Positions 6,690 through 63,888 of a stretch of DNA of 64,000 nt are shown piece after piece. The stretch lies in the IMG/VR virus record IMGVR_UViG_3300038393_002131; one strand, written 5' to 3'. The translations under genes were made by a program, and so were the position numbers. Each line of letters opens with the position of its first letter. Within the stretch, counting starts at the first letter, position 1. The notes beneath the pieces are model-generated. The model made no database searches, was not told the origin of the DNA, and saw only the letters and a list, made by a program, of their open reading frames with translations. Source of the stretch: a virus (lineage: Duplodnaviria > Heunggongvirae > Uroviricota > Caudoviricetes).

Positions 6690-6775
6690 GGGGATTCCCC
6701 TTCTCGGTGTGTCCTTGTCGGGGACGCTTGTCCCGACACCCCTGACTTTAGGGGCTGTGCACTACAGGGTCAATG
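6690..6775 (-). promoter_or_regulatory. promoter-leader cassette (TTGACC-N17-TAAAGT; hairpin GTCGGGACAAGCGTCCCCGAC; RBS GAGAAGGGG)
   Basis: Read directly; closest match to the sigma-70/SigA-type consensus. Confidence 0.6.
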
Positions 6776-6884
6776 GTTCGCGTGTCGGCGAGTCACGGCA
6801 CCGGCACGGGGCCGGCAGGTGAGGCGGTCAGCCACACCCACACGACCCCGGCCAGCACAGACAGGGCAACGGCCTGCCAGACCT

Positions 6885-24375: not shown

Positions 24376-24683
24376 GACGCGCTCCGGCCGGGCATGGGCC
24401 GACGCAGCCGCGCGGCCAGGGCGTGCGAGCCCTTCGGGGTGCGGGTCCAGCGCGGCCGATCGCCGGAGCGGTCCATGACGACGAAGCCGTGGCGGCACAG
24501 CTGGCGAACCTTGAGGATGCGGCCGTCCTCGTCGAGGGGCACGCGGTGCCCGGTGAGGGCCTGCGCGGTGAGGTCGTCGTCGTCGATCCACACGCCGTCG
24601 GCGGGGATGAGGTGCAGGACGTGGAGCAGGTAGCCCGGGAGCGGCTGCATGCGGCGGCGCCGGTCCGGGCGGGTGTCGGTCAT
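24372..24683 (-). CDS. hypothetical protein (~103 aa)
   Basis: ATG at 24683 overlaps the upstream TGA. Confidence 0.45.
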   Translation of the reverse strand: MTDTRPDRRRRMQPLPGYLLHVLHLIPADGVWIDDDDLTAQALTGHRVPLDEDGRILKVRQLCRHGFVVMDRSGDRPRWTRTPKGSHALAARLRRPMPGRSAS

Positions 24684-25837
24684 GCGGCGGCCCTCGCGGG
24701 GGCGGCCGCCTTGGCGGCCTCGCGGGCGGCGGCGGACAGGGCGCGCTTGGCGGCGAGGCGATCCTCGCGCTGCTGGGCGCGCTCCTCGGCGACCGCCGGG
24801 TGGTCGTTCGGGATGACGGCCGCGGACGGGTCGAGCAGACCGAGGTCGATGCACACCTCGACCGGGTTGCCGTCACCGTTGCGGAACTTCCACAGCAACT
24901 CCGCGAGCTCGACGCGGCGGGCCGGGCCCTCGGCGTCGATCTGACGGATGCCGAGGCGCTTGAGCATGCGGGTGAAGTTGCGCTCCATGGTGTCCCACGC
25001 GGTGTGCTCGGGAGTGTCCTCCTGCGGCTGGGGGCCGAGGACCTGCGTGGTGAGCGCGCGGCCGCCGAGGGTCGGGTTGCGCAGCGCCAGGGCGAGCCGG
25101 TCGAGCTTGTCGTGGCACGCCTCCTCGATGATCGTCCACGGGTGCTCAGGCAGCGCCCGGTAGTCGAGGGTGCCGTCCTCGTCGTAGTAGGCGGGCGGGT
25201 AGTAGCCCGCGCGGCGGGCCATGTGCCGGGTCGTGGCGATGCTCATGGGCGTCAGGCCCGGGCCCGGTTCGGCGGGCTTGTCGCCGACCTTGCGGGCGAG
25301 GGCTGCGATGGCGTCGGCGACGCGGCGGTCGATGAGGTTCTGCTCGCCCCGGCCGACGATGGAGATCATCTGGTGCAGGCCAGCCACCGAGTGCTTCTCC
25401 TGCCACCTGAGCCCGTATCCGAGGGCCTGCATCTGCCGGACCATCAGGACGTACGGGGCCGGGTCCACGCGGTGCCGCCCGGCGAGGTCGGCGGGCTTGA
25501 CCGCCATGATGCGTGCCGCTGACCGGCCGCTGAGCCGGAGGGTCTGGCGGGCGCGGGCGATGGTGTTCTGCGACACGCCGGCGACCTTGGCGAGGTGGGC
25601 CTCGGTCACGCCGGGGATGGCGAGGCAGTTGTCGACGTGGGTGAGCACGGCGGCGACCTTCGGCTCGCCGATGGTCTTGGAGTTGATGCCGCGGTTCCGC
25701 AGGGACGTGAGCTGCTTGTTGCGGCGCTGCTTGGCGGCGCGGCAGTCGGTGCAGGCGCAGCCGCGGTGGCGGCCCTTCGGTGTGCCGTGCGGGAAGTCAG
25801 GGTGGTTGACGTCGCGGATGACGGGCGTGCGTGGCAT
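24680..25837 (-). CDS. helix-turn-helix DNA-binding protein (~385 aa)
   Basis: Start at M100 (MPRTPVIRD) with a leader hairpin at ~25855-25875; HTH-like VAGVSQNTIARARQTL; divergent from the sigma-factor operon. Confidence 0.55.
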   Translation of the reverse strand: MPRTPVIRDVNHPDFPHGTPKGRHRGCACTDCRAAKQRRNKQLTSLRNRGINSKTIGEPKVAAVLTHVDNCLAIPGVTEAHLAKVAGVSQNTIARARQTLRLSGRSAARIMAVKPADLAGRHRVDPAPYVLMVRQMQALGYGLRWQEKHSVAGLHQMISIVGRGEQNLIDRRVADAIAALARKVGDKPAEPGPGLTPMSIATTRHMARRAGYYPPAYYDEDGTLDYRALPEHPWTIIEEACHDKLDRLALALRNPTLGGRALTTQVLGPQPQEDTPEHTAWDTMERNFTRMLKRLGIRQIDAEGPARRVELAELLWKFRNGDGNPVEVCIDLGLLDPSAAVIPNDHPAVAEERAQQREDRLAAKRALSAAAREAAKAAAPARAAA

Positions 25838-26119
25838 GGGGATACCCCTCGGAGTGTCGGGGCCCGGGACGCTGTCCGGGCGGGTGGTTCGTGGGGCTGA
25901 CTGTAGTGCCGCACAGTCGCGCAACGCAAGGGTGCCGGGCCCCAGGCCCGTTTCCTGTATCGGGGCAAAATCCCCCAACCTACCCGGACAGGGTTCGCAT
26001 GTAACATTCAGGAAGGACCGGCCGATAGCGGTGCGACCCTCAAGCAGAGCGGGGTTGGTAAGGCGGGTCCTAGCAGTGGTTCCTTCACCCAAACCCCTGA
26101 CTCGGAGCAGTACCAACCC
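25838..26119. promoter_or_regulatory. 282-bp divergent control region between the HTH regulator (minus) and the sigma-factor operon (plus); lower GC and lacks the standard cassette
   Basis: No class-I hairpin before the sigma gene; the minus side has a hairpin at ~25855-25875. Confidence 0.45.
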
Positions 26120-26815
26120 ATGATCCTCGCCCAACGGCGCAAGGCCGGCATGCCCGAAGATGAGGCCCGCCGGGCCGACATCGAAGCCCTAGCACAACGA
26201 GCTGCAGCAGGCTCGGAGGACGCCCTGAGCGACCTGTTCGAGACGCTGCACGACGCGACGTACCGGTTCATCTACCGGCAGGTTCGCAACCCACATCTGG
26301 CCGAGGACCTCGACGGCAAGACGTGGATGAAAATCGTCCACAAGATCAGCACCTACACCACGTCGCCATCCGGGTTCGAGTCGTGGGTCTACACCATCGC
26401 CCGCAACACTGTGCGCGACGAGTTCCGCTCCATGCCCCGCTCCCGTGAGATCCCGACGGCCGACATGCTCTCGGTGGGCATGCCGACCAGCCTCGTCTCG
26501 CAGGACGCCACGCCGGAGGAGACCGCCCTGGACGCCGAGCGCGTCGGCGAGATGCGGGTGGCTATCGCGAAGGCGCTCGAGTCGCTCCCGCCGAACCAGC
26601 GGCGCGCGCTCGTGCTGCGGTTTTTCGACGGGCTCGACGTAGTGCAGGTGGCGTCCGTGATGCAAACGACGCCGTCGAACGTTCGTAATTTACAGAGCCG
26701 TGGTGCACGTCGGCTCGCGTCCCAACTACCCGACCTCCGACTGCTGTCCATGAGGACTGTCGGTGGGGAAAAGGTGATCGCTAATGCCCAAGGAGAACGC
26801 CATGCGACTCGATGA
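26120..26815 (+). CDS. ECF-type sigma-70 family RNA polymerase sigma factor
   Basis: Region-2-like YRFIYRQVRNPHLAEDLDGKTWMKI and region-4 HTH RRALVLRFFDGLDVVQVASVMQTTPSNVRNLQSRGARRL. Confidence 0.85.
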   Translation: MILAQRRKAGMPEDEARRADIEALAQRAAAGSEDALSDLFETLHDATYRFIYRQVRNPHLAEDLDGKTWMKIVHKISTYTTSPSGFESWVYTIARNTVRDEFRSMPRSREIPTADMLSVGMPTSLVSQDATPEETALDAERVGEMRVAIAKALESLPPNQRRALVLRFFDGLDVVQVASVMQTTPSNVRNLQSRGARRLASQLPDLRLLSMRTVGGEKVIANAQGERHATR

Positions 26816-27182
26816 TGAGACGGTTGCCGGCATCCTCGACGGGTCCATCTCCCCTGGCCGGTCCGGGCGGGGTCTGCGTGAGGTCGCCGAGGCCCTGACG
26901 CCTCGCATCGCTCCGCGGGAGGCCCACCGCGCCCAGCTCAAGCACGCCATGCTGCGCGAGTTCCGCCGCCAGAACGCGGCCGCCCTCGTCGACACCCTTG
27001 ACGTCGACGCGTCGGTCGAGACGCGCCCGCTGACGGGGCACGCCCCGGTCGCGTTCGTGTCCGAGGGTGTCCGCATCGACGTCGCTGACCTTGACCCGGT
27101 CGACGCCCGCGAGTCCCTCGACGACCTCGCACTGGTGATCTCGCTCGCTGGCGAGGCCGCGACCCACAAGCGCACCAGGTGA
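26802..27182 (+). CDS. hypothetical protein co-transcribed with the sigma factor (possible anti-sigma or adaptor, ~126 aa)
   Basis: ATG at 26802 with AAGGAG RBS 6 nt upstream; overlaps the sigma gene 3' end in another frame; high-GC3 coding. Confidence 0.45.
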   Translation: MRLDDETVAGILDGSISPGRSGRGLREVAEALTPRIAPREAHRAQLKHAMLREFRRQNAAALVDTLDVDASVETRPLTGHAPVAFVSEGVRIDVADLDPVDARESLDDLALVISLAGEAATHKRTR

Positions 27183-28327
27183 CCGTCCTCGGCCGCAAGT
27201 CGGCCCTCGATGACCTGACCGTCATCGTCAGCCCGGCGGTGAAGCGTGACGCGTACGTCGTGTCCCCGCAGGTCGGCGGCAAGACGCTGGTGCTGCGCAA
27301 GGACCAGACGTTCGAGAACGCCGTCGAGCGGCTGAGTGAGCTGTTCCCGAAGGAGCACGCGGACGACGTGCGCCGGTTCGTGCGCAAGCACATGCCGGAC
27401 GCTCCGACGTTCGACTCGATCCTTGAAGGGACCGCGCCTGCGCCCTCGTGGATGCAGAAGATGGGCGATGACGGCGAGGGCCGGCCCATGACGCGACGGG
27501 CGAAACTGACGACGGCCGCGCTGGTCACGGTGATCGCCGCGGCGTCGCTGGGTGGTGTGGCCGCGGTGCGGTCCATGACGGAGTCGATGTTCGACGACGC
27601 GGCGTTCACGTCCCTGACGAGGGCGGCGCACCTCGAGTGCCGCATCCTCGACTCTGACACCGCCGAGTGCCGCAACCCCGTCAAGGGCACGGTGTGGCGC
27701 GTCCTGGCCGACGAGGGCAACGATGACCTTCCGCCGTCGTACCGGTTCCTGTCCGGGCAGCAGATGGCGGTGATCTACATGTTCCCGTCGGCCGAGGCGC
27801 GGCTGAACTACCCGAACCGGGCCGCGTACGAGCGTGTGTGGGACTACATGACGGCGCGGGACAAGATCATGATCGGCGCGACGGACGCCCCCGTCCTGGC
27901 GGCGCTGGCTGGCGCGGTCGACGAGTCGTTCCTCGACGGTGTCCCGCAGACGCCGGCGACCACGTCGAGGGGGAAGCCGCCGACGATCACCAACCTGCTG
28001 CCAACCCCCACCAAGAGCATCCCCACCGAGAAGCCGTGGCCGACACCGACGGGCGGCTCGCCCACGATGCTGGGCCCGGCCTACGGCGGGTCCTCACCGT
28101 CGCCTGAGCCGTCGTCACCGGACACGGGCACCCCGCAGCCGCCCGGGGCCGTTGACGAGCCAGTGGGCAGCACGGACCCGGATCAGCCGGGCGCGGACCC
28201 GGCGACCCCGGCCCAGCCTGCGACACCTGCCAACCCGCAGCCGTCGGTCAGCGACACGCAGAAGCCGGGGATCGGCGTCCAGCTGCCCGGTGTGTCGATC
28301 ACGCTGCCGCTGTCGATCGGGCTCTGA
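27179..28327 (+). CDS. single-pass membrane protein with Pro/Thr-rich extracytoplasmic C-terminus (382 aa; candidate transmembrane anti-sigma factor)
   Basis: ATGA overlap with the upstream gene; TM helix LTTAALVTVIAAASLGGVAAV at ~118-140; Pro-rich tail. Confidence 0.6.
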   Translation: MTVLGRKSALDDLTVIVSPAVKRDAYVVSPQVGGKTLVLRKDQTFENAVERLSELFPKEHADDVRRFVRKHMPDAPTFDSILEGTAPAPSWMQKMGDDGEGRPMTRRAKLTTAALVTVIAAASLGGVAAVRSMTESMFDDAAFTSLTRAAHLECRILDSDTAECRNPVKGTVWRVLADEGNDDLPPSYRFLSGQQMAVIYMFPSAEARLNYPNRAAYERVWDYMTARDKIMIGATDAPVLAALAGAVDESFLDGVPQTPATTSRGKPPTITNLLPTPTKSIPTEKPWPTPTGGSPTMLGPAYGGSSPSPEPSSPDTGTPQPPGAVDEPVGSTDPDQPGADPATPAQPATPANPQPSVSDTQKPGIGVQLPGVSITLPLSIGL

Positions 28328-28333
28328 ACAGCC

Positions 28334-28365
28334 GAAGGGCCCCCACCGTCTGTGGTGGGGGCCCT
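28334..28365. terminator. bidirectional hairpin terminator between the convergent sigma operon and ssb
   Basis: GAAGGGCCCCCAC-cgtctg-GTGGGGGCCCTTC, perfect 13-bp stem. Confidence 0.6.
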
Positions 28366-28390
28366 TCGTCGTGCTACCCGGCCGGGACGA

Positions 28391-28966
28391 TCAGAACGGG
28401 GGCTCGTCGGAGTAGGCCGCGCCGCCCTGCGCCGGCTGACCCCAGCCGCCGCCCTGCTGGCCGCCCTGAGCCTGCTGGCCCCAGCCGCCGCCGTTGCCCT
28501 GCTGGCCGCCGCCCGTGGCCCACGGGTCGGCGCCGCCGCCGGACTGGCGGTAGCCGCCGGAGCCCTCGCCGTTGCCGAACCCGCCCTGGCCGGACTTGTC
28601 GCGCATGGTCCGGTTGACCTTGGCCGTGGCGCTGCGAAGCGACGGGCCGATCTCGTCCACGTCGAGCTCGACGACGGTGCGCTTCTCGCCTTCCTTCGTC
28701 TCGTACGACCGGGACTTGAGCCGGCCCTGCAGGATGACGCGCATGCCGCGCTGCAGGCTCTCGGCGACATTCTCGGCCGCCTCGCGCCAGACCGAGCAGC
28801 GCATGAACAGCGTCTCGCCGTCCTTCCACTCGTTCGCCTGCTTGTCGAACTGGCGGGGCGTCGAGGCCACCGTGAAGTTCGCGACCGCAGCACCGGAGGG
28901 AGTGAAGCGCAGCTCGGGGTCGGCAGTCAGGTTGCCGATGATCGTGATGACAGTCTCACCGCTCAT
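28391..28966 (-). CDS. ssb: single-stranded DNA-binding protein
   Basis: Start at [13 protein letters not shown]; OB-fold SSB N-terminus; Gly/Gln-rich tail ending DEPPF. Confidence 0.9.
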
Positions 28967-29053
28967 GATGGGTGTTTTCCTTCTCGTTGTGTCGTGCCCC
29001 GGGACGCTTGTCCGAGGCGGTGAGCACACCGTACCGGCGTGCTACGACAGTGG

Positions 29054-33636: not shown

Positions 33637-33716
33637 GACGTGGGTGTTCTTTCTGCTGGGCGCCCGGGACGGTGAGTGTCCGATTCGGGCGTGGTGGATG
33701 GATTTGAGCATGAAAG

Positions 33717-33808
33717 GGCCCGCAGCTGTCCGCGACCCGCGGGATTTGAACCCGCGCGCCCCTTCGCGGAAAGAGGCATGCCTACCTGGCCGTCAGCTGC
33801 GGGCCCAA
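33717..33808 (-). other. tRNA-like structured element (T-arm-like GGTTCAAATCC hairpin inside a 13-bp stem); not a canonical tRNA
   Basis: Minus-sense CGCGGGTTCAAATCCCGCG hairpin, AGGCATGCCT palindrome and outer GGGCCCGCAGCTG/CAGCTGCGGGCCC stem; no acceptor, D or anticodon arms could be fitted. Confidence 0.3.
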
Positions 33809-33835
33809 TGACGGGGACCTTGGCCGGGTAGGAGT

Positions 33836-49023: not shown

Positions 49024-49842
49024 TCAGCAGAGGTAGCAGCGTCGGCCGTACACGCCGATGTGCGTCTTGGCGTCGCTGTTGGTGCCCTGCAGCTGGACGC
49101 TGGGCCGGTCCCCCGGCCTGGCCGCGCTCAGCGTGAGGAACCGGCGCCCGGTCGGGTTGATGAGCGCCTGGTTCGCGGTCGTGCCAGAGGAGTCCACCGA
49201 CCACGACGCGGCCTTGAACCGGATCCATGCCCCCGACGGGATCGTGCCCATGTAGGTCAGCGAGTCGCCGTACCCGCCGTCGGTGTTGTCGATGAGCTTC
49301 GGGTTCGTGATCCGGCCGAAGATCGTGAACTCGAGCATCTCGAGCGGCGCCGTCGACGTGGCGAAGTCGTCGAGGTAGAGGGTGTGCGGCATCGTCGACG
49401 ACGGGATGGAGTCCATGCGGTAGGTCTGCACCGACTGCCACACCCCGATCGGCACCGTGAAGGTGATCGAGGCGCGGTACCCGTGCATGCCGAGGTGCGT
49501 CGGGGAGATCGTGCCGGACACCTCGACGTTGGCGTAGACGATCTCGCCACTGGACATCTGCCGCTTCACCTGCACGAGCCGGTGCGGCCGGTACACGGCC
49601 CGCAGCAGGGTCCGCCACGCGTCGTCGGCCTTCTGCCGGGTGTCGCCCATGAGCCACATCTGGATGGTGAACTTGCCCTCCCCGATCACCTTCGGGGTCC
49701 AGATCGAGCCCGACCGGTTCGCGACCGTCAGGTTGTCACCGACCATGGCTGCGACCTCGTCGAGGCCGTCGCGGATCTCCCAATCCCGCACCGTGCCGTC
49801 GGTGAGCTCCCACTCGTCGAACCAGATCCGCTCACGCGCCAT
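49024..49842 (-). CDS. distal tail protein (Dit-like minor tail protein)
   Basis: 272 aa directly after the TMP (ATGA overlap with the TMP stop), beta-rich; position-based call. Confidence 0.65.
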   Translation of the reverse strand: MARERIWFDEWELTDGTVRDWEIRDGLDEVAAMVGDNLTVANRSGSIWTPKVIGEGKFTIQMWLMGDTRQKADDAWRTLLRAVYRPHRLVQVKRQMSSGEIVYANVEVSGTISPTHLGMHGYRASITFTVPIGVWQSVQTYRMDSIPSSTMPHTLYLDDFATSTAPLEMLEFTIFGRITNPKLIDNTDGGYGDSLTYMGTIPSGAWIRFKAASWSVDSSGTTANQALINPTGRRFLTLSAARPGDRPSVQLQGTNSDAKTHIGVYGRRCYLC

Positions 49843-52800
49843 CAGTAGTCATCTCCTGCGAAAAGCCCGAACTGGCCGATGTCGCGAGTCACCTTCGTGA
49901 TCGTCGTGCTCGCCGTCTCCTGGGCGGGGTTGCTGATGAGGACCGAGCCGGGCTCGAACACGATCGAGGGGCCGCTGGCGACCGCGGGCGTAGCCGACGA
50001 CGCGCGGGGCGTGCTCGCCGTGGACGTCACCCGGCTCGCGCCGACCTGAGCCGCCTGCGGCATGAGTGCCGCACCGAACCGGTCCGCGACCTCCTCGAGG
50101 ATTGCCATGGACCGGGCCCGCTTCGCCGGGGACAGCGGAATGTAGGCCTCTCCCCCGGTTTCCGGCTCGGCCCACACTCGCCAGTCGCCGGCGTTGGCGA
50201 TCTCGGCGAGGTGGTTCTCGGTGCCGCGCGCGAACGCCTTGAGGCCCTCGCGGATGCCGCCGTTGCGGAAGAAGTCGACGATGCCGCCGTTCTTCTTGTC
50301 GAGGCCCCTGCGGTCGAGCTGCCGCTCGTTGTGGGCGACGAGGGCGCCCTGATGCCCGACGGTGCGGTAGATCGTCGTCAGCGAGACGGTCTTGTCGTGC
50401 ACCGAGTCGAGGAGACGCTTGGCGAGAGCGACCGCGGCCCGAATCGCCATCGTCTCGGCGGTGATCTGGACCTTCTTCTGCTTGGGGACATCACCGATCG
50501 CGTCAGACAGCCCGTCGACGGTCTCGGTGGTGTAGCCGTATTCCCGCGCCATGGCCTCGGCAGCGGCCTTGGAGCCGAGCATCTTCGTGGCAACGTTGAC
50601 GAACTCGCCCTTGGCCTTGTTCATCGCGGCGCGGGTGGCGTCGACGCCCTCGCCGTTCTTGAGCATGGCCTGCCAGTTGGCGATCGCGTCCGTGCGCAGC
50701 CCCTTGAGCACGCCCTGGTTCGACCGGCCGGCCTTGCTGCTCAGGTCGAGCTTGCCCGTCGCCTTGTCGACGGTCTTGACGTACTCCCCCATGTGGGACT
50801 TCGCCTCGGCGAGAGTGGCGTTGTAGGTCGCCTGCGCCGTGTCGGCGTCGACCTCCGCGTCGGAGATCCCGAGGAGGGTCGCCTTGAGCCGGACCTGCGC
50901 GTCGCGGGCGGCGTCGGTCGCCGTCGCGAGGGCATCCGCCGCGGCCTTGTAGCCGTTGACCTTCGGGGTGGCGCCGGCCGCCGCGTTGCCGTTCTCGTCG
51001 AACAGGACCTTGGCCCGCTGGGCGCCCTGCGAGGCGCGGTCCATCGAGGCGCCGAGGCCCTCCATGATGTCGGCGTCGTCCTTGACGAACAGCCAGTCGA
51101 TTCCGGCGATGTCGTCGAGCTTCTGCTTGGCGTTCTCGAGGTCGGGGCCGCCGTTGAGGGCGGCCTTGGCGAGGTCGTCGAAGTTGAAGCCGAGCTCCTG
51201 CACCCGCTTGATGTCCTCGGCCGACAGGTCACCGAGGAGGGCCTCCTTGACGGTGGCGACGCTCTGGCCGGTGAAGGCGCCGGTCTGCTTGTCGATCGTG
51301 CCGGTGAGGGCGTCGCCGATCTCCTTGGCCTTCGCCTCGTTCTCCATCCACACCGAGATCCCGGCGGCCGCGGCCGACAGCGCGATGCCCCACGGGCCGC
51401 CGAGCAGCCCCATGAGCCCGGACGCGGCCGACTTCGCCCCACTGAGGGCACCCTTGAGGCCCTTGCCCATCCCGGCGCCGCCGCCGTAGCCGAGGGCGCC
51501 GGTGAAGCCGGACATCTGGTCGCGGAACTTGCCGATGTTGCCGCCGGACTTCACCGCGGCCTCGCCGACCATCCTGATGCCGGTGGACAGGTTGCCCCAG
51601 CCGGTCGTCTTGGTGAACGCCTGCAGCTTGGGCCGCAGGAGCAGGAACGCGGACAGGGCGATGGTGGCCGCCTGGACGGGCTTGGGCCAGCCGGCGAGGA
51701 TGCCGGAGAACGACGCGAGCATGGCGAGCGTGGCACCCATGGACAGGGCGCCGCCGGCGCGGACGGTCGCGAAGAACTTGGCGACGATCGGGATGATGCC
51801 CGTGAAGAACCGCAGCGACCGGAACATCAGGAACGCGCCGAGCAGCACGCCGAGGTTCGACGCGAGCTGCGGGCTGGCCTCGAGCAGCGCCATGACGGCG
51901 GTCAGCCACTCGTTGAGGACGCCGAGGACGCTGGCGAGCGGAGACCCCGCGGCGGACAGCTCGGCGAGGATCGTCACGAGGTTGGACACGAACGTGATGA
52001 CCTGCGGGCCGAGGCTCTCGCCGAGCAGCCGCAGGCCCTTCTCGAGCGCCGGGATCAGCTTGGCGGCGATGAGGTCGAGCAGCGCGGCGGTGTGGCCGTC
52101 GGAGGACAGGCGCGCGAGGGCCTTGGCGAGCTCGACGATGACGCGGCCGGCGGCGCGCGCGACCGGCTCGACGGACTCGAACCAGTCGGCGATCTTCTGC
52201 TGGCCCTCGACGGAGGAGGTCCAGTCGTGGAAGGCCTGGATCTGCTCCTGCAGGGTGCGCAGCAGCGAGTCGCCCGTGGCGCGGCCGGCGCGGAACATGT
52301 CCGCCAGCGCGCCGCCGAGGTTCTTGGTCATGTCCCACAGCTGGGCGGCCTTCTGGTAGCCAGTCTCGAACCCGGCCGCGAGGCGGGCCTGCTCGTCGGC
52401 GGTGTCGCCGATGCCCTGGGCCCACTTGCCGAAGTCGCGCAGGACGTCGCCGAGTTTGCCCACGAGCGGCGCGGCCGCGGTCGCGAGGTTGACGGCGCCC
52501 TTGGCGGCGCCGAGGAGGGCGGAACCGAACCCGTCGACGAGGCCGCGCAGCGAGTAGAAGATCGTGTTCGCCTGCCCCTTGAACAGGGGCGTGCGCAGCC
52601 ACGCAGCGGTCTGCTTGGCCGTCTCCCCCATCTCGGTGGCGACACCCTTGAGGCCCTTGCGCAGGATCGGCATGAGGACCTTGCCGGTGGGCTCGATGTC
52701 GTCCTTGAGCGGCTTCCAGAACGCCCCCGAGACCTGCTTCTTGAGCTTGTCGAGCTCGGGTCGGAGCTTCTCGAACTCCTTGCGGATCGGGACGAGGTAC

Positions 52801-53567
52801 TCGGGGACCTTCTTCATCGGCCCGAACAGGTGACCGAACGCGATACGGGTGACACCCATCGCGGTGGCCCACCCCATGAATAGGGCGGGGGCGGCACCCA
52901 CGAGGTTGAAGATCGGCGCGAGGGAGGACCCCATGGCGACGAGGCCACCGAGGGAGCCGCCGATCGCGGCGATGGCAGGCTGGATCACCGACGCGATGCC
53001 GAGGTACACCGTCGGCATGAACGCCGACCGGGCGTTGCCCTCGGGCTTGAGCCAGCCGGGCAGCTTGAAGTCGGAGGACTTCTGCTTCTCGTCGGCCTTG
53101 ACCTTGACCTTGATCGGGTTGGCGTCGGCGATGGCCTGGCCCTTGACGCGGGCCGCGAAGATCGACCGGAGGAACCCCTCGCCGTCGGCGCGCAGCGGCA
53201 GCCGGAGCCACCCGCGGCGGCCCTTCTGCTGGGCCTCGACCTTGGCCTTCTCCTTCTCGACGGCCTCGCCGAGCCCGTCGACGACGACCTTGATCTTGGC
53301 TTCCGCGCCGGCGGCCTTGGCCGCGGCCGCCATCTTCGCCTTGAGGCCGTCGGTGTCGATCTCGACGGCGATCTTGGCGGTGACACCGGCCGCGGCCTCG
53401 TCCACGGCAGCCTTGAGCTTGTCCCGCAGCCCCGCCTTGTCGATCTCGACTTCGATCTTCGCGGCGAGGTTGCGCGTCTCCTTCTCGATCGCGGCCTTGA
53501 GCCGCTCGCCGAAGCCCTTGGTGTTGGACTCAACGGGGATCTCGAGGGTGCCTGCGACGTCACTCAC
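49842..53567 (-). CDS. tail tape measure protein
   Basis: 1241 aa, Ala/Gly/Lys-rich helical with central hydrophobic segments; GTG start with RBS GAGGGTGG; follows the frameshifted chaperone pair. Confidence 0.9.
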   Translation of the reverse strand: MSDVAGTLEIPVESNTKGFGERLKAAIEKETRNLAAKIEVEIDKAGLRDKLKAAVDEAAAGVTAKIAVEIDTDGLKAKMAAAAKAAGAEAKIKVVVDGLGEAVEKEKAKVEAQQKGRRGWLRLPLRADGEGFLRSIFAARVKGQAIADANPIKVKVKADEKQKSSDFKLPGWLKPEGNARSAFMPTVYLGIASVIQPAIAAIGGSLGGLVAMGSSLAPIFNLVGAAPALFMGWATAMGVTRIAFGHLFGPMKKVPEYLVPIRKEFEKLRPELDKLKKQVSGAFWKPLKDDIEPTGKVLMPILRKGLKGVATEMGETAKQTAAWLRTPLFKGQANTIFYSLRGLVDGFGSALLGAAKGAVNLATAAAPLVGKLGDVLRDFGKWAQGIGDTADEQARLAAGFETGYQKAAQLWDMTKNLGGALADMFRAGRATGDSLLRTLQEQIQAFHDWTSSVEGQQKIADWFESVEPVARAAGRVIVELAKALARLSSDGHTAALLDLIAAKLIPALEKGLRLLGESLGPQVITFVSNLVTILAELSAAGSPLASVLGVLNEWLTAVMALLEASPQLASNLGVLLGAFLMFRSLRFFTGIIPIVAKFFATVRAGGALSMGATLAMLASFSGILAGWPKPVQAATIALSAFLLLRPKLQAFTKTTGWGNLSTGIRMVGEAAVKSGGNIGKFRDQMSGFTGALGYGGGAGMGKGLKGALSGAKSAASGLMGLLGGPWGIALSAAAAGISVWMENEAKAKEIGDALTGTIDKQTGAFTGQSVATVKEALLGDLSAEDIKRVQELGFNFDDLAKAALNGGPDLENAKQKLDDIAGIDWLFVKDDADIMEGLGASMDRASQGAQRAKVLFDENGNAAAGATPKVNGYKAAADALATATDAARDAQVRLKATLLGISDAEVDADTAQATYNATLAEAKSHMGEYVKTVDKATGKLDLSSKAGRSNQGVLKGLRTDAIANWQAMLKNGEGVDATRAAMNKAKGEFVNVATKMLGSKAAAEAMAREYGYTTETVDGLSDAIGDVPKQKKVQITAETMAIRAAVALAKRLLDSVHDKTVSLTTIYRTVGHQGALVAHNERQLDRRGLDKKNGGIVDFFRNGGIREGLKAFARGTENHLAEIANAGDWRVWAEPETGGEAYIPLSPAKRARSMAILEEVADRFGAALMPQAAQVGASRVTSTASTPRASSATPAVASGPSIVFEPGSVLISNPAQETASTTITKVTRDIGQFGLFAGDDY

Positions 53568-61983: not shown

Positions 61984-63282
61984 TCACGCCGGGACGGTCC
62001 AGCTGCCCACGACGAAGCTCTCCGGGCGAGCGACCTCGAGCGCCAGGCGCTCGGTCGCGAGGAAGGTGCACGCGCCGTCCGTGAAGTTGGTCCCGTGCTC
62101 CGTGCTCGCGACGACCTTGACGCTCTCGCGGTCGTGCAGCTGGGCGCCGGTGCCGAACGCGCCGACGAGGAACTTCGCGTCGTCCATGGCGGTCGTCTCG
62201 ACGACCCGGAGGCGCCAGACGCGCTTCTCGGCGCCGATCGCGACGGAGACGGCGACACGGAACGCACCCGTGCTGTCCTCCTCGACCTCCACGGCCTCCC
62301 ACATCGTCGGCGAGAGAACGATGCCGTTCATCTCGTACTCCGCGAGGAGACCCTTGGTGATCGCGCGGCGGATCTGGACCGAGTAGCCGTCGGCGGCGAG
62401 ACCCGTGTAGGCCTGGACGCCGGGGCTGTTGAACAGACCCGTGATCTTCTCGCCCGACCCCGTGGAGTGCAGGAGGTCGTTGTCCTCGGCGTACTTGACG
62501 CCCTCGACGAGGCGGTTGTTGATGAACGACTTGAGTCGCCCGTCGTCCGCGAGGATGTTGACGTGCGCGTCGAGCGAGTGCTTGATCTCCGCGACGGGGA
62601 ACAGCACGGGCTCGAGGCGCAGCTTCGACTTCGGCGCGCGGCCGAACACGTCGTCGTCGGCGCCGGTGGCCGGGGACACGCCGTCGGCGGCGTAACGCTG
62701 CGCGACCTGCGCGGCGTTGTTCGTCCAGCCGAGCTCACGGAGCCCCGTCAGGACGGACGCCTTCGTGGTCGACTTCGGGAACAGGTCCCGAATGTGCATC
62801 TTGCGGTAGGCGCGCTCCGCGATGCCGAGGTCCTGGTTGGTGCCGAGGGCCTGGAACTCGTGGCTGCCGGCCGCGAAGTTGTAGAGGGACTTGCCCTCGA
62901 GCTGGACGGTGATGTTCGACACGTTGTCGAACCCGGCCTTCGCGGCGCGCTGGTAGGCCTCGGCGTCGGTGAACGCGTCACCGAGCGACTTGCCCTCGAG
63001 GCGGCCGGCGCCGGCGTCGAGCGCGGCCTCGGACGGACGCTCGGGGGCGTTGAGGTAGTCGTAGCCCTCGGCGACCTTCTCGACGGCGTCGATGAAGCTC
63101 TTGGCCTCGGCGGCCTCCATGACGGCGGTCTTGTACTTCGTGTACTCCTCGCGGGAGATCTCGAAGCGGCCCTTCTCGTCGGTCTTGAAACCGGAGGCGA
63201 TGCCCTCGATGTCGGCGTTCTTCTGCTCGAGGTCGGCCTTGGCCGCGGCGAGCATGCTCTTGTCGAGCGTGGCGGTGCTCAT
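61984..63282 (-). CDS. major capsid protein (HK97-like, with an N-terminal scaffold-like helical segment)
   Basis: 432 aa; N-terminal coiled-coil-like ~100 aa then a mixed alpha/beta domain; own promoter region and strong terminator. Confidence 0.75.
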   Translation of the reverse strand: MSTATLDKSMLAAAKADLEQKNADIEGIASGFKTDEKGRFEISREEYTKYKTAVMEAAEAKSFIDAVEKVAEGYDYLNAPERPSEAALDAGAGRLEGKSLGDAFTDAEAYQRAAKAGFDNVSNITVQLEGKSLYNFAAGSHEFQALGTNQDLGIAERAYRKMHIRDLFPKSTTKASVLTGLRELGWTNNAAQVAQRYAADGVSPATGADDDVFGRAPKSKLRLEPVLFPVAEIKHSLDAHVNILADDGRLKSFINNRLVEGVKYAEDNDLLHSTGSGEKITGLFNSPGVQAYTGLAADGYSVQIRRAITKGLLAEYEMNGIVLSPTMWEAVEVEEDSTGAFRVAVSVAIGAEKRVWRLRVVETTAMDDAKFLVGAFGTGAQLHDRESVKVVASTEHGTNFTDGACTFLATERLALEVARPESFVVGSWTVPA

Positions 63283-63501: not shown

Positions 63502-63888
63502 ATGACCCTGTCGTTTGACGACTTGCTGACCGAGCCAGCACCGCCCGCCGCGCGGACCGAGAACAGGCCGCACGTGCTCGTGCTCACCTACGACGAGGAC
63601 GGCGACGCCGAGTTCGACATCGAGCACCACGACGACTGCCCGACTGTGGCCCGCTGGGACGGCGAGGTGCTCGACTACGACTGCGCCGTCGGCATGGAGG
63701 TCGCCAGCTCAGGCATCGAGTTCTCGTTCAGCGGCACCCCGGAGGAGGACCACTCCTACGCCGAGCCGCTGCGGGTGCCCGGCCGCTACCTCATCGAGTG
63801 GTGGACCGAGACCCACCGCGGGTTCGACTACACCGAGTACGACGCCGGGCTCCGGCTCGTCTACCCCGAGGAGGCCCACCGTGGCTGA
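63502..63888 (+). CDS. hypothetical acidic protein (128 aa), plus strand
   Basis: RBS GGAGGA, sense-orientation leader hairpin GCCGGGAAGCGTCCCCGGC and promoter TTGACT-N17-TAGCGT upstream. Confidence 0.5.
   Translation: MTLSFDDLLTEPAPPAARTENRPHVLVLTYDEDGDAEFDIEHHDDCPTVARWDGEVLDYDCAVGMEVASSGIEFSFSGTPEEDHSYAEPLRVPGRYLIEWWTETHRGFDYTEYDAGLRLVYPEEAHRG

Follow-up and report, generated by a model that had tools for sequence, protein, structure and literature searches.

A conserved three-gene module encoding an ECF sigma factor and two candidate regulatory partners in Streptomyces-type phages

Sigma factors of the extracytoplasmic function (ECF) type are typically co-transcribed with their own anti-sigma factors, for which three domain classes are known (PMC6101532). 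Here we describe a three-gene operon in a 64,000-nt stretch of phage DNA (Caudoviricetes; IMG/VR record IMGVR_UViG_3300038393_002131), hereafter referred to as the window, which encodes an ECF sigma factor, a small soluble protein (open reading frame 2, ORF2) and a single-pass membrane protein (ORF3). The closest described counterpart is the sigma-BldN/RsbN pair of Streptomyces (PDB 6DXO/6C03, class III), in which BldN is both the closest solved and the closest curated relative of the phage sigma factor. RsbN consists of 117 cytoplasmic residues, a transmembrane segment at residues 118-139 and a 272-aa ectodomain; its sigma-binding part comprises three helices, with a PKP hinge before the long helix 3, and R67, L70 and M74 contact sigma-2 (PMC6101532). 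ORF3 resembles RsbN in plan, as ~110 cytoplasmic residues and one transmembrane segment are followed by a large ectodomain and by a tail that is Pro-rich and of low complexity, and the predicted helix-helix-Pro-long-helix order of ORF2 resembles that of RsbN(1-91), in a model with a predicted local distance difference test (pLDDT) score of 46. The arrangement differs from that of Streptomyces in that the presumed function would be split over two polypeptides in the phage, and in that the bldN and rsbN genes lie ~270 bp apart with a BldN-dependent promoter, whereas the phage genes overlap.

Other described systems share parts of this organization. Class I anti-sigma factors (RseA, RsiW, RskA and ChrR) are likewise encoded just downstream of an ECF sigma gene and are single-pass proteins with the N terminus inside, but ORF3 has no match to the class I anti-sigma domain (ASD-I) profile, no Zn-binding motif and no cytoplasmic cysteine, and its predicted N-domain is not a four-helix fold. 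In CnrH-CnrY-CnrX of Cupriavidus and in EcfG-NepR-PhyR, three proteins act as sigma factor, small anti-sigma factor and separate sensor; CnrY is membrane-anchored, CnrX is a periplasmic metal sensor and PhyR is a soluble response regulator. By analogy only, this three-protein logic would fit a small ORF2 and a membrane sensor ORF3, which resemble the components of neither system in sequence or in predicted fold. In phages phiEco32/7-11, T4 (gp55/gp33) and SPO1 (gp28 and gp33/34), a phage sigma factor redirects the host core polymerase. The 'anti-sigma' protein of phiEco32/7-11 targets the host polymerase and not the phage sigma factor, and none of these systems has a transmembrane partner or a protein homologous to ORF2 or ORF3. 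To our knowledge, no phage-encoded sigma factor has been shown to be under the control of its own membrane-embedded partner. Phage sigma factors and transmembrane anti-sigma factors are both well known; their combination in a phage is uncharacterized, as is the lack of a recognizable anti-sigma domain. We propose, with chances that we regard as evenly balanced, that this locus serves a family of Streptomyces-type phages as a conserved module of three proteins for transcription control.

An ECF sigma factor in an overlapping three-gene unit

The initial annotation, made from the sequence alone, had placed three plus-strand ORFs in this unit (26120-28327) and had called the product of the first a phage-encoded ECF sigma factor. 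All three ORFs were recovered at the same positions, frame analysis based on GC content at third codon positions (GC3) indicates that the sigma gene, ORF2 and ORF3 are all coding, and the first product is a genuine ECF-type sigma factor by its matches to Pfam regions r2 and r4_2 and to TIGR02937 (Table 1). Both Pfam domains score above the gathering threshold and no others were found, including region 1.1 and region 3; against the NCBIfam sigma70-ECF model TIGR02937, the protein scores 84.3 bits (cutoff, 42.9). The linker of ~40 aa between r2 and r4 carries the conserved sequence REIPTADML, and the start codon, ATG 26120, is kept in relatives together with its GGAG ribosome-binding site (RBS).

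Among specific NCBIfam models, the best is that of the BldN family (TIGR02952), where the score of 121.3 bits lies below the equivalog cutoff of 206.45, so that the protein is BldN-like and not a BldN ortholog. The best PDB match is 6dxo_A, the sigma-BldN chain of the RsbN-BldN complex (7.5e-23), and the phage protein and a Streptomyces BldN are 33% identical across 194 residues, on par with the 35% identity to the sigma factor of the Streptomyces phage Gilgamesh. The phage protein differs from BldN in having only ~23 residues before the conserved core, compared to ~85 in the longest BldN ORFs, in lacking the long N-terminal pro-region, in its sigma-4 recognition helix, and in standing in a phage context and not a chromosomal one.

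We considered whether the sigma factor targets mainly host genes, acting as a BldN mimic that reprograms the chaplin/rodlin/bldM regulon during infection or lysogeny and that is silenced by its partners until needed. Although its similarity to BldN matches its similarity to the Gilgamesh sigma factor, the failed equivalog cutoff, the missing pro-region and the divergent recognition helix all argue against mimicry. The operon is the only one that runs against the lytic genes, as lysogeny-expressed genes often do, and the Gilgamesh-type relatives are temperate or integrated (see below), but neither the window nor the 10 kb to its right showed an integrase. BldN-dependent development is known to limit phage spread in Streptomyces (PMC10117723), which speaks for host targets; on balance, we consider host targeting very unlikely.

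A BldN-like sigma factor with 32% identity was also observed on a phage-like contig of 38 kb (L020, Ga0247821_10000172). We rejected this contig as a member of the module, as its downstream genes differ and include no relatives of ORF2 or ORF3; its different context suggests that BldN-like sigma factors entered actinophages in more than one context.

The three genes form an overlapping operon, as the initial annotation had described, with an overlap of 32 nt between the sigma gene and ORF2 and of 4 nt between ORF2 and ORF3, where the GTG start of ORF3 overlaps the ORF2 stop codon (GTGA). ORF2 is present as annotated, but its assigned length of 126 aa, counted from ATG 26802, did not stand: relatives keep the ATG at 26784, which extends the protein to 132 aa and creates the 32-nt overlap, whereas the sister clade does not keep ATG 26802, although this codon has an AGGAG of its own. 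Within the C-terminal tail of the sigma factor, only GGEKVIANA (26762-26788) is conserved between clades. The codons for EKVIANA supply, in another frame, the RBS and start of ORF2 (GGAGAAAAGG…ATG), and the double use of these bases as the Shine-Dalgarno (SD) sequence and start of ORF2 points to a dual-coding constraint.

Table 1. Positions of the features of the sigma operon, its flanks and the window
Feature	Position	Strand	Details
ECF (group 4) sigma factor	26120..26815	+	231 aa, pI 9.0; Pfam r2/r4_2
Sigma-2 domain	26234-26431 (aa 39-104)	+	PF04542 Sigma70_r2, E 3.1e-12, 46.5 bits vs gathering threshold (GA) 24
Sigma-4 domain	26558-26716 (aa 147-199)	+	PF08281 Sigma70_r4_2, E 3.9e-12, 46.1 bits vs GA 25.7
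ORF2	26784..27182	+	132 aa, acidic, soluble, pI 5.6, no Cys, no transmembrane segment
ORF3	27179-28327	+	382 aa, single-pass, N-in/C-out
ORF3 cytoplasmic N-domain	27179..27499 (aa 1-107)	+	alignments A5/A9
ORF3 transmembrane segment	27512..27568 (aa 112-130)	+	mean Kyte-Doolittle (KD) value 2.03
ORF3 extracytoplasmic globular domain	27575..27943 (aa 133-255)	+	invariant columns in A9; ~120 aa, mainly beta
ORF3 Pro/Thr/Ser-rich low-complexity tail	from 27944 (about aa 256-365)	+	26% Pro, 25% Ser+Thr
ORF3 conserved hydrophobic C-terminal motif	28265-28324 (aa 363-382)	+	GIGVQLPGVSITLPLSIGL; then stop, 28327
Divergent gene	24680-25837	minus	385 aa; phrog_1590, unknown function
Early cassette of the divergent gene	25839-25935	minus	SD, leader hairpin, TTGCGT-N-TACAGT
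Leader hairpin of the divergent gene	25854-25873		AGCGTC...CGACAC
Divergent intergenic control region	25838..26119		alignment A6
Block 1	25997-26008	+	CGCATGTA[A/G]CAT; possible -10, TAACAT/TAGCAT
Block 2	26037-26058	+	CCCTCA..AG.G.GGGG; alignment A6
Block 3	about 26102-26109	+	RBS CGGAGCAG; alignment A6
GC-rich hairpin	28333..28368		perfect 15-bp stem, 6-nt loop; z = -3.8 and -4.1 (two strands)
Convergent single-stranded DNA-binding protein (SSB) gene	28391-29029	minus
Class II word sites	23342, 30764, 33836, 43683, 44303, 49006, 54560, 55306, 56012, 58378, 58960, 61756, 63400	minus	17 nt each
Early cassette		minus	HrdB-like promoter TTGACC-N17-TAAAGT, leader hairpin (…GGGAC-AGC-GTCCC…), CGACAC, SD
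Early cassette examples	promoter 6744-6778; leaders 8735, 11746, 17466, 22825, 25854, 28989, 32518	minus
Tape measure	49842-53567		window
Major head protein	61984-63282		window

The trio of sigma factor, small protein and membrane protein recurs in at least 9 independent loci and in every relative examined, indicating that the association is more than chance. The closest sigma homolog (57% identity) is encoded on a 3.5-kb contig, L004, on which the three genes overlap by 32 nt and 4 nt as in the window and are again flanked by the divergent gene and the convergent SSB gene. Together with L018 and L019, it forms a sister clade whose identity to the window is 57% for the sigma factor, 51% for ORF2 and ~45% for ORF3. 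An exhaustive HMMER search of 1.84 billion representative proteins with ORF3(1-260) returned 47 relatives, 17 of them below 1e-10. In every context of an ORF3 relative that we examined, an ECF sigma gene is followed by a gene for a 120-141-aa protein and then, with a 4-nt overlap, by the ORF3 relative; the module contexts in this wider family are L149, L150, L151, L152, L155 and L156. Genes 2 and 3 overlap by 4 nt in all loci measured (7/7), and the sigma gene overlaps gene 2 by 17-32 nt in 5/7. The ORF2 family, with at least 9 known members, is homologous throughout, as a hidden Markov model (HMM) of the window clade matches L149 (1.8e-6) and L150 (4.4e-5), and an enlarged HMM matches Gilgamesh gp91 (2.2e-7; hhalign, 93.9%). 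Identity of ORF3 across the module relatives falls to ~23%.

The presence of such an operon had been considered unusual in a phage, which proved to be an overstatement, as the same module is found in the cultured Streptomyces phage Gilgamesh (MN234216). There, gp92-gp91-gp90 are annotated as an 'RNA polymerase sigma factor' and two 'hypothetical proteins'; gp91 belongs to the ORF2 family and gp90 to the ORF3 family, and gp90 aligns with ORF3 over the N-domain, the transmembrane segment and the ectodomain. Gene order, overlaps (17 nt and 4 nt), the convergent SSB gene and the orientation against the neighboring genes are shared, but identity to the window is only about 35% for the sigma factor, 15% for ORF2 and 23% for ORF3. 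In addition, gp90 exceeds ORF3 in length (556 aa) and contains one more conserved segment beyond the ectodomain, and Gilgamesh carries two tyrosine integrases, a type of gene not observed in the window. Another copy of the module, Gilgamesh-like, was located on a contig of 1.48 Mb from a genome assembly (L151; GCA_044455105.1, JBITEK010000001.1 75934-93547), apparently a prophage-like stretch of a Streptomyces chromosome, with an SSB gene, an Amidase_2 lysin gene and a DnaC-like gene as neighbors. Taken together with the Gilgamesh integrases, this location suggests that at least that branch is temperate or integrated. We note that Gilgamesh also encodes an FtsK-like translocase.

Further searches returned few relatives. 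ORF2 and ORF3 gave self matches only in a word-indexed search of 5.8 billion proteins and no match by tblastn in 50,697 deposited phage records. IMG/VR scans yielded nothing with the ORF3 alignments A2 and A11, only unrelated crAss-like sigma factors with the sigma alignment A3, and one relative with alignment A10. Our literature search returned no description of this module, including the function of Gilgamesh gp90-gp92. So far, the ORF2 and ORF3 families have been found only in this sigma context. These results establish a real ECF sigma factor, a strictly conserved overlapping three-gene unit and two new protein families.

Domain organization of ORF3 and ORF2

The initial annotation had described the third protein as a single-pass membrane protein with its N terminus inside and a Pro/Thr-rich part outside. 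The single hydrophobic segment and its positive-inside flanks agree with this topology: across 27 ORF3-family members, Lys and Arg residues on the N-side and C-side flanks of the segment stand at 114:27, which places the N-terminal ~110 residues in the cytoplasm. The composition of the tail (Table 1) likewise matches the described Pro/Thr-rich extracytoplasmic part. The cytoplasmic N-domain contains three short strands followed by helices with the signature Q-[ST]-F-x-N-A-V ... L-P-x-x-H-P-D-x-V-R-x-L-V-R-x-H-L-P-D-A-P; Pro57 and Arg69 are invariant, and a basic cluster precedes the membrane segment. The structure models of ORF2 and ORF3, made from single sequences, were poor, and we gave weight to their secondary structure only. 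The N-domain of ORF3 is predicted with low confidence as beta strands and two helices, reaching a pLDDT of 76-80 only at aa 40-75, and the whole model has a pLDDT of 47.

Between the transmembrane segment and the Pro/Thr tail lies a conserved two-cysteine ectodomain that was absent from the initial annotation. Cys154 and Cys164 are invariant and probably form a disulfide, and the ectodomain is a candidate sensor domain. The protein ends in a hydrophobic motif of the form …V-T-I-x-L-P-x-x-x-I-G-L/F, common to L004/L018/L019, P0007, P0008, P0009, P0011 and P0013, which may be a wall- or membrane-anchoring signal. Streptomyces RsbN likewise ends in a Leu/Pro-rich motif (…LPPLLPGLLPGLGID). Compared with the L004 clade, ORF3 identity is 52-55% in the cytoplasmic domain, 47-49% in the ectodomain and 27-32% in the transmembrane segment and tail; within the protein, the cytoplasmic domain and ectodomain are conserved, and the transmembrane segment and tail are not.

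A disulfide-type ectodomain on a long Pro/Thr stalk is typical of wall-spanning surface proteins, and we explored the hypothesis that the two partners serve an envelope function (superinfection exclusion, cell-wall interaction or lysis timing) and merely share a transcript with the sigma factor. The module adjoins lysin A in Gilgamesh and L151, and the partners have no anti-sigma homology at all, both of which are compatible with such a role. However, gene order and the 4-nt overlaps are kept down to ~23% identity and both families occur only beside the sigma gene, which argues for a physical or functional complex, and PADLOC gave no match in the module, on which ground a defense-system reading was also rejected. 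We find an envelope function quite unlikely.

ORF3 has no match in Pfam, PHROGs, NCBIfam or PADLOC. Sequence and profile searches of the PDB returned matches to its low-complexity tail only, with none for the ectodomain in either the PDB or Pfam, and searching each of 27 ORF3 relatives against Pfam at E<=10 gave nothing consistent. The helical part of the N-domain shows weak CUE/three-helix-bundle-like matches. ORF2 likewise has no match in Pfam, NCBIfam, PHROGs or PADLOC, nor in the PDB by sequence or profile, and when eight ORF2 relatives were searched one by one against Pfam at E<=10, no consistent match emerged. Foldseek searches of the PDB with the ORF2 and ORF3 models produced no hit below E = 0.4. 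By these sequence comparisons, ORF2 and ORF3 define unannotated protein families.

The initial annotation had assigned ORF2 no specific role, listing it only with the downstream proteins to be assayed. The predicted layout of ORF2 begins with a helix at aa 11-18, followed by a second helix, a hinge at the invariant Pro40 and a long helix to ~aa 70. Beyond this point are a short strand region, a conserved h-x-h-A-D-h-E/D-x-I/L-x-P motif (invariant D102) and a C-terminal helix. The single-sequence model (low confidence, pLDDT 46) shows helices at 11-18 and 28-71, the latter long and containing Pro40. On the basis of this predicted fold, ORF2 is a candidate sigma-binding or adaptor subunit, and its helix-helix-Pro-long-helix N-terminus, together with the presence of its family in every locus, makes it at least as good a sigma-binding candidate as ORF3.

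Possible control of the sigma factor and its targets

For comparison with RsbN, we extracted RsbN from 80 Streptomyces bldN-rsbN loci and performed profile-profile alignments. In these loci, RsbN is ~400 aa long and consists of a cytoplasmic N-domain, one transmembrane segment, an ectodomain and a low-complexity Pro/Gly/Ser tail. Homology of the phage partners to RsbN was rejected, with BLAST and hhalign both null, and PDB profile searches with the ORF2 and ORF3 families never gave the RsbN chain. Anti-sigma factors change far faster in sequence than their sigma factors, as documented for RsbN-like proteins and BldN (PMC4255298), so that missing sequence similarity would be expected even for a true functional analog; the null result lowers the probability that a partner is an RsbN much more than the probability that it works like one. 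Helix 3 of ORF2 (HRAQLKHAM) matches RsbN QRAQLVAAM at 6/9 positions, with ~0.3 such matches expected by chance, and we treat this and the resemblance of 'RRAERVARALED' (L150) to RsbN as leads only.

The initial annotation had regarded ORF3 as the candidate anti-sigma factor. In this version, ORF3 alone would be a conventional single-chain transmembrane anti-sigma factor like RsbN or RseA, with a cytoplasmic N-domain that would bind the sigma factor directly, and ORF2 would be accessory or unrelated. The topology and domain sizes are right when set against the dimensions of RsbN, the cytoplasmic domain is the most conserved part of ORF3, and its weak CUE/three-helix-bundle-like matches point to a protein-binding module. 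The three strands and two helices predicted for this domain nevertheless fit none of the three known anti-sigma domain classes, ORF3 has no homology to any anti-sigma factor, and ORF2 is conserved no less strictly than ORF3 and overlaps the genes on both sides, as would hardly be expected of an unrelated passenger. We judge it unlikely that ORF3 acts alone.

A second possibility is a partner switch, in which ORF2 would be a small soluble anti-sigma factor like NepR or CnrY, and ORF3 would not be an anti-sigma factor but a membrane sensor, whose cytoplasmic domain would capture ORF2 upon a signal, freeing the sigma factor. In favor of this, ORF2 is soluble and acidic and the sigma factor is basic (Table 1), and the second conserved module at the C terminus of ORF2 could dock onto ORF3. 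The N-terminal half of ORF2 follows the helix-helix-Pro hinge-long helix order of the RsbN three-helix domain, and its HRAQLKHAM has the R..L...M spacing of RsbN R67/L70/M74, but this similarity is not significant by the measures given above and the ORF2 model is of low confidence. A membrane-bound anti-anti-sigma factor of this fold would also be without known precedent. We regard the partner switch as doubtful.

The operon had been annotated as lacking the early cassette found upstream of other genes (Table 1), and scans for upstream elements confirmed this. On the plus strand upstream of the sigma gene, we found neither a sigma-70/HrdB consensus promoter nor the class II motif; three blocks are conserved with the L004 clade (Table 1). 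More distant relatives have plausible HrdB-type -10 boxes (TACGAT, TAGGAT and TATGCT) 90-130 nt upstream of the sigma gene. The BldN-type consensus CGTAACC-N16/17-CGTTG, which we derived from 24 rsbN promoters, is absent, with one chance-level GTAAC-N-CGTT elsewhere in the window. A candidate autoregulatory ECF promoter upstream of the sigma gene, GTAAC-N17-CGAT, was rejected, since neither the L004 clade nor other relatives keep it.

The class II motif had been put forward as a candidate target promoter of the sigma factor. The motif exists, as a 17-nt word (GAGGACGCGACACAAGC) with 13 copies at <=3 mismatches compared to 0.73 expected, all on the minus strand, but nothing beyond co-occurrence links it to the sigma factor. 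It is the top repeated 11-mer of the window and is co-oriented with the genes; many copies begin within or directly behind a TGA stop codon, and the next start often follows at a distance of 5 to 120 nt. None of the loci retrieved from other phages contains the word. We rejected it as a canonical ECF -35/-10 promoter, as no conserved element lies 16-17 nt to either side. Other phage sigma factors use a compact phage-specific promoter word present in few, well-conserved copies (PMC4331800), and such single-element promoters keep the class II word as a possible sigma target. It could be either a compact, non-canonical promoter or an RNA processing or leader site.

Several of these results weigh against the proposed control module. 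The 'classic' ECF sigma/anti-sigma assignment made in the initial annotation found no homology support, with neither partner matching zf-HC2, RskA, RsdA or another anti-sigma model, and an anti-sigma domain went undetected in both proteins in Pfam, NCBIfam, PHROGs, PADLOC and the PDB (sequence and profile). An HxxxCxxC motif is absent, and neither ORF2 nor the cytoplasmic domain of ORF3 contains a cysteine. Against RsbN, hhalign gave a probability of 0.3% for ORF2 and aligned ORF3 by its transmembrane segment only (P = 0.05); the models are of low confidence (pLDDT 46-47) and the fold searches were empty. No autoregulatory ECF-type promoter is conserved upstream of the sigma gene. The class II word is a contiguous 17-mer with no conserved flanks and no -35/-10 partner, suggesting that it has no -35/-10 architecture, and Gilgamesh has no comparable repeated 11-mer in its first 50 kb (1-50 kb). 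It also shares CGACAC with the early 5′ leaders, which makes a role at the RNA level (processing or leader) as plausible as a promoter.

Given that ECF sigma factors are co-transcribed with anti-sigma factors and that ORF3 has an RsbN-like membrane plan, we hypothesize by analogy that the two partners together make up a membrane-linked system that controls the sigma factor, a proposal that we see as equally open to either outcome. Genes 2 and 3 lie directly downstream of the sigma gene in constant order, with a 4-nt overlap. Coupled translation would deliver the three proteins in a fixed proportion, favoring a complex, in which ORF2, the cytoplasmic domain of ORF3 or both would bind the sigma factor and hold it inactive at the membrane; ORF2 and ORF3 would then be a two-polypeptide functional equivalent of a transmembrane anti-sigma factor such as RsbN. 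The disulfide-type ectodomain on its Pro/Thr stalk would sense something outside the membrane. Upon release, the sigma factor would replace the host sigma factor on the host core RNA polymerase and switch it to phage-specific promoters, for which the class II word upstream of middle and late genes is the only, and a weak, candidate in the window. The operon itself would be read by the host polymerase from its own promoter, distinct from the early cassette and from a self-recognized ECF promoter.

If the partners regulate the sigma factor, the virus would couple its transcription program to a signal outside the cytoplasm of a multicellular, developing host, and a function could be assigned to two unannotated families, with 47 and at least 9 known members. 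The module could link phage infection to host development, since the sigma factor is BldN-like and BldN-driven development limits phage spread. This question can be tested directly, since the module occurs in Gilgamesh, a phage in culture with a genetically tractable host, S. lividans. More speculatively, and with well under an even chance, the phages may possess transmembrane signaling of their own, with ORF3 as a wall-spanning sensor and ORF2 as an adaptor constituting an unrecognized two-polypeptide anti-sigma class that gates a BldN-like sigma factor. Late transcription or the lysis/lysogeny decision would then answer an extracytoplasmic cue, for example the state of the cell wall, the development of hyphae or damage caused by neighboring infections.

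Flanking genes and genome layout

The divergent gene upstream of the operon had been annotated as a helix-turn-helix (HTH) regulator, a claim that we could not uphold: the protein has no detectable HTH and no Pfam or NCBIfam match, and its only match is phrog_1590. GC3 frame analysis places its start at 25837 (385 aa) and not at the start of the longest ORF, and the protein begins with a Cys-containing motif (HGTPKGRHRGCACTDCRAAKQRRNK). By tblastn, this gene is the conserved divergent neighbor in L004, L005, L017 and L025, and L152 has a divergent gene of equal length (385 aa).

Downstream, the annotated convergent terminator hairpin was found as a perfect stem that separates ORF3 from the convergent SSB gene (Table 1). 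It lacks a T-tract and was missed by a terminator scan based on T-tracts; it is a probable bidirectional, T-tract-less terminator. Early leaders precede both genes that flank the sigma operon (25854 and 28989). The leader word AGCGTC-N5-16-CGACAC occurs in 18 copies compared to 0.71 expected, all on the minus strand between 653 and 42760, and this conserved early 5′ leader suggests a shared post-transcriptional or operator function.

The phage is of a high-GC Streptomyces type: the G+C content of the window is 70%, and the minus strand carries nearly all genes. Besides the proteins in Table 1, the window encodes tail proteins, a DnaC-like loader, a methyltransferase and an SSB. As initially annotated, the sigma operon is the only multi-gene plus-strand unit inside the window on a GC3-based gene map, and the GC skew changes sign only at 26-30 kb. 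No close relative of the phage was found among the 50,697 deposited phage records, and megablast of 25500-28500 against them gave no match. Assemblies of several JGI samples (3300037418, 3300037466 and 3300037419) contain the same phage, whose proteins are also found on a contig as long as 134 kb.

A second plus-strand block begins at 63502 (63502-63888 in the window) and runs past the right end. Its products include DUF5131, a metallophosphatase, an AAA_10 (VirB4/TraG-like) ATPase of 891 aa and a Peptidase_M23 protein; in a siphovirus-like genome, such an accessory arm is unusual. No known RNA families (Rfam) were found in the window. On the minus strand, a 99-nt structured element (33712-33810) lies just downstream of a class II word, with a minimum free energy (MFE) of -59.7 kcal/mol (z = -4.9) and no call from ARAGORN or Rfam. 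Its 13-bp closing stem (GGGCCCGCAGCTG/CAGCTGCGGGCCC) surrounds three hairpins, one of which contains a tRNA T-arm sequence (GCGGGTTCAAATCCCGC), and the element could be a tRNA-like RNA or an attachment-site relic.

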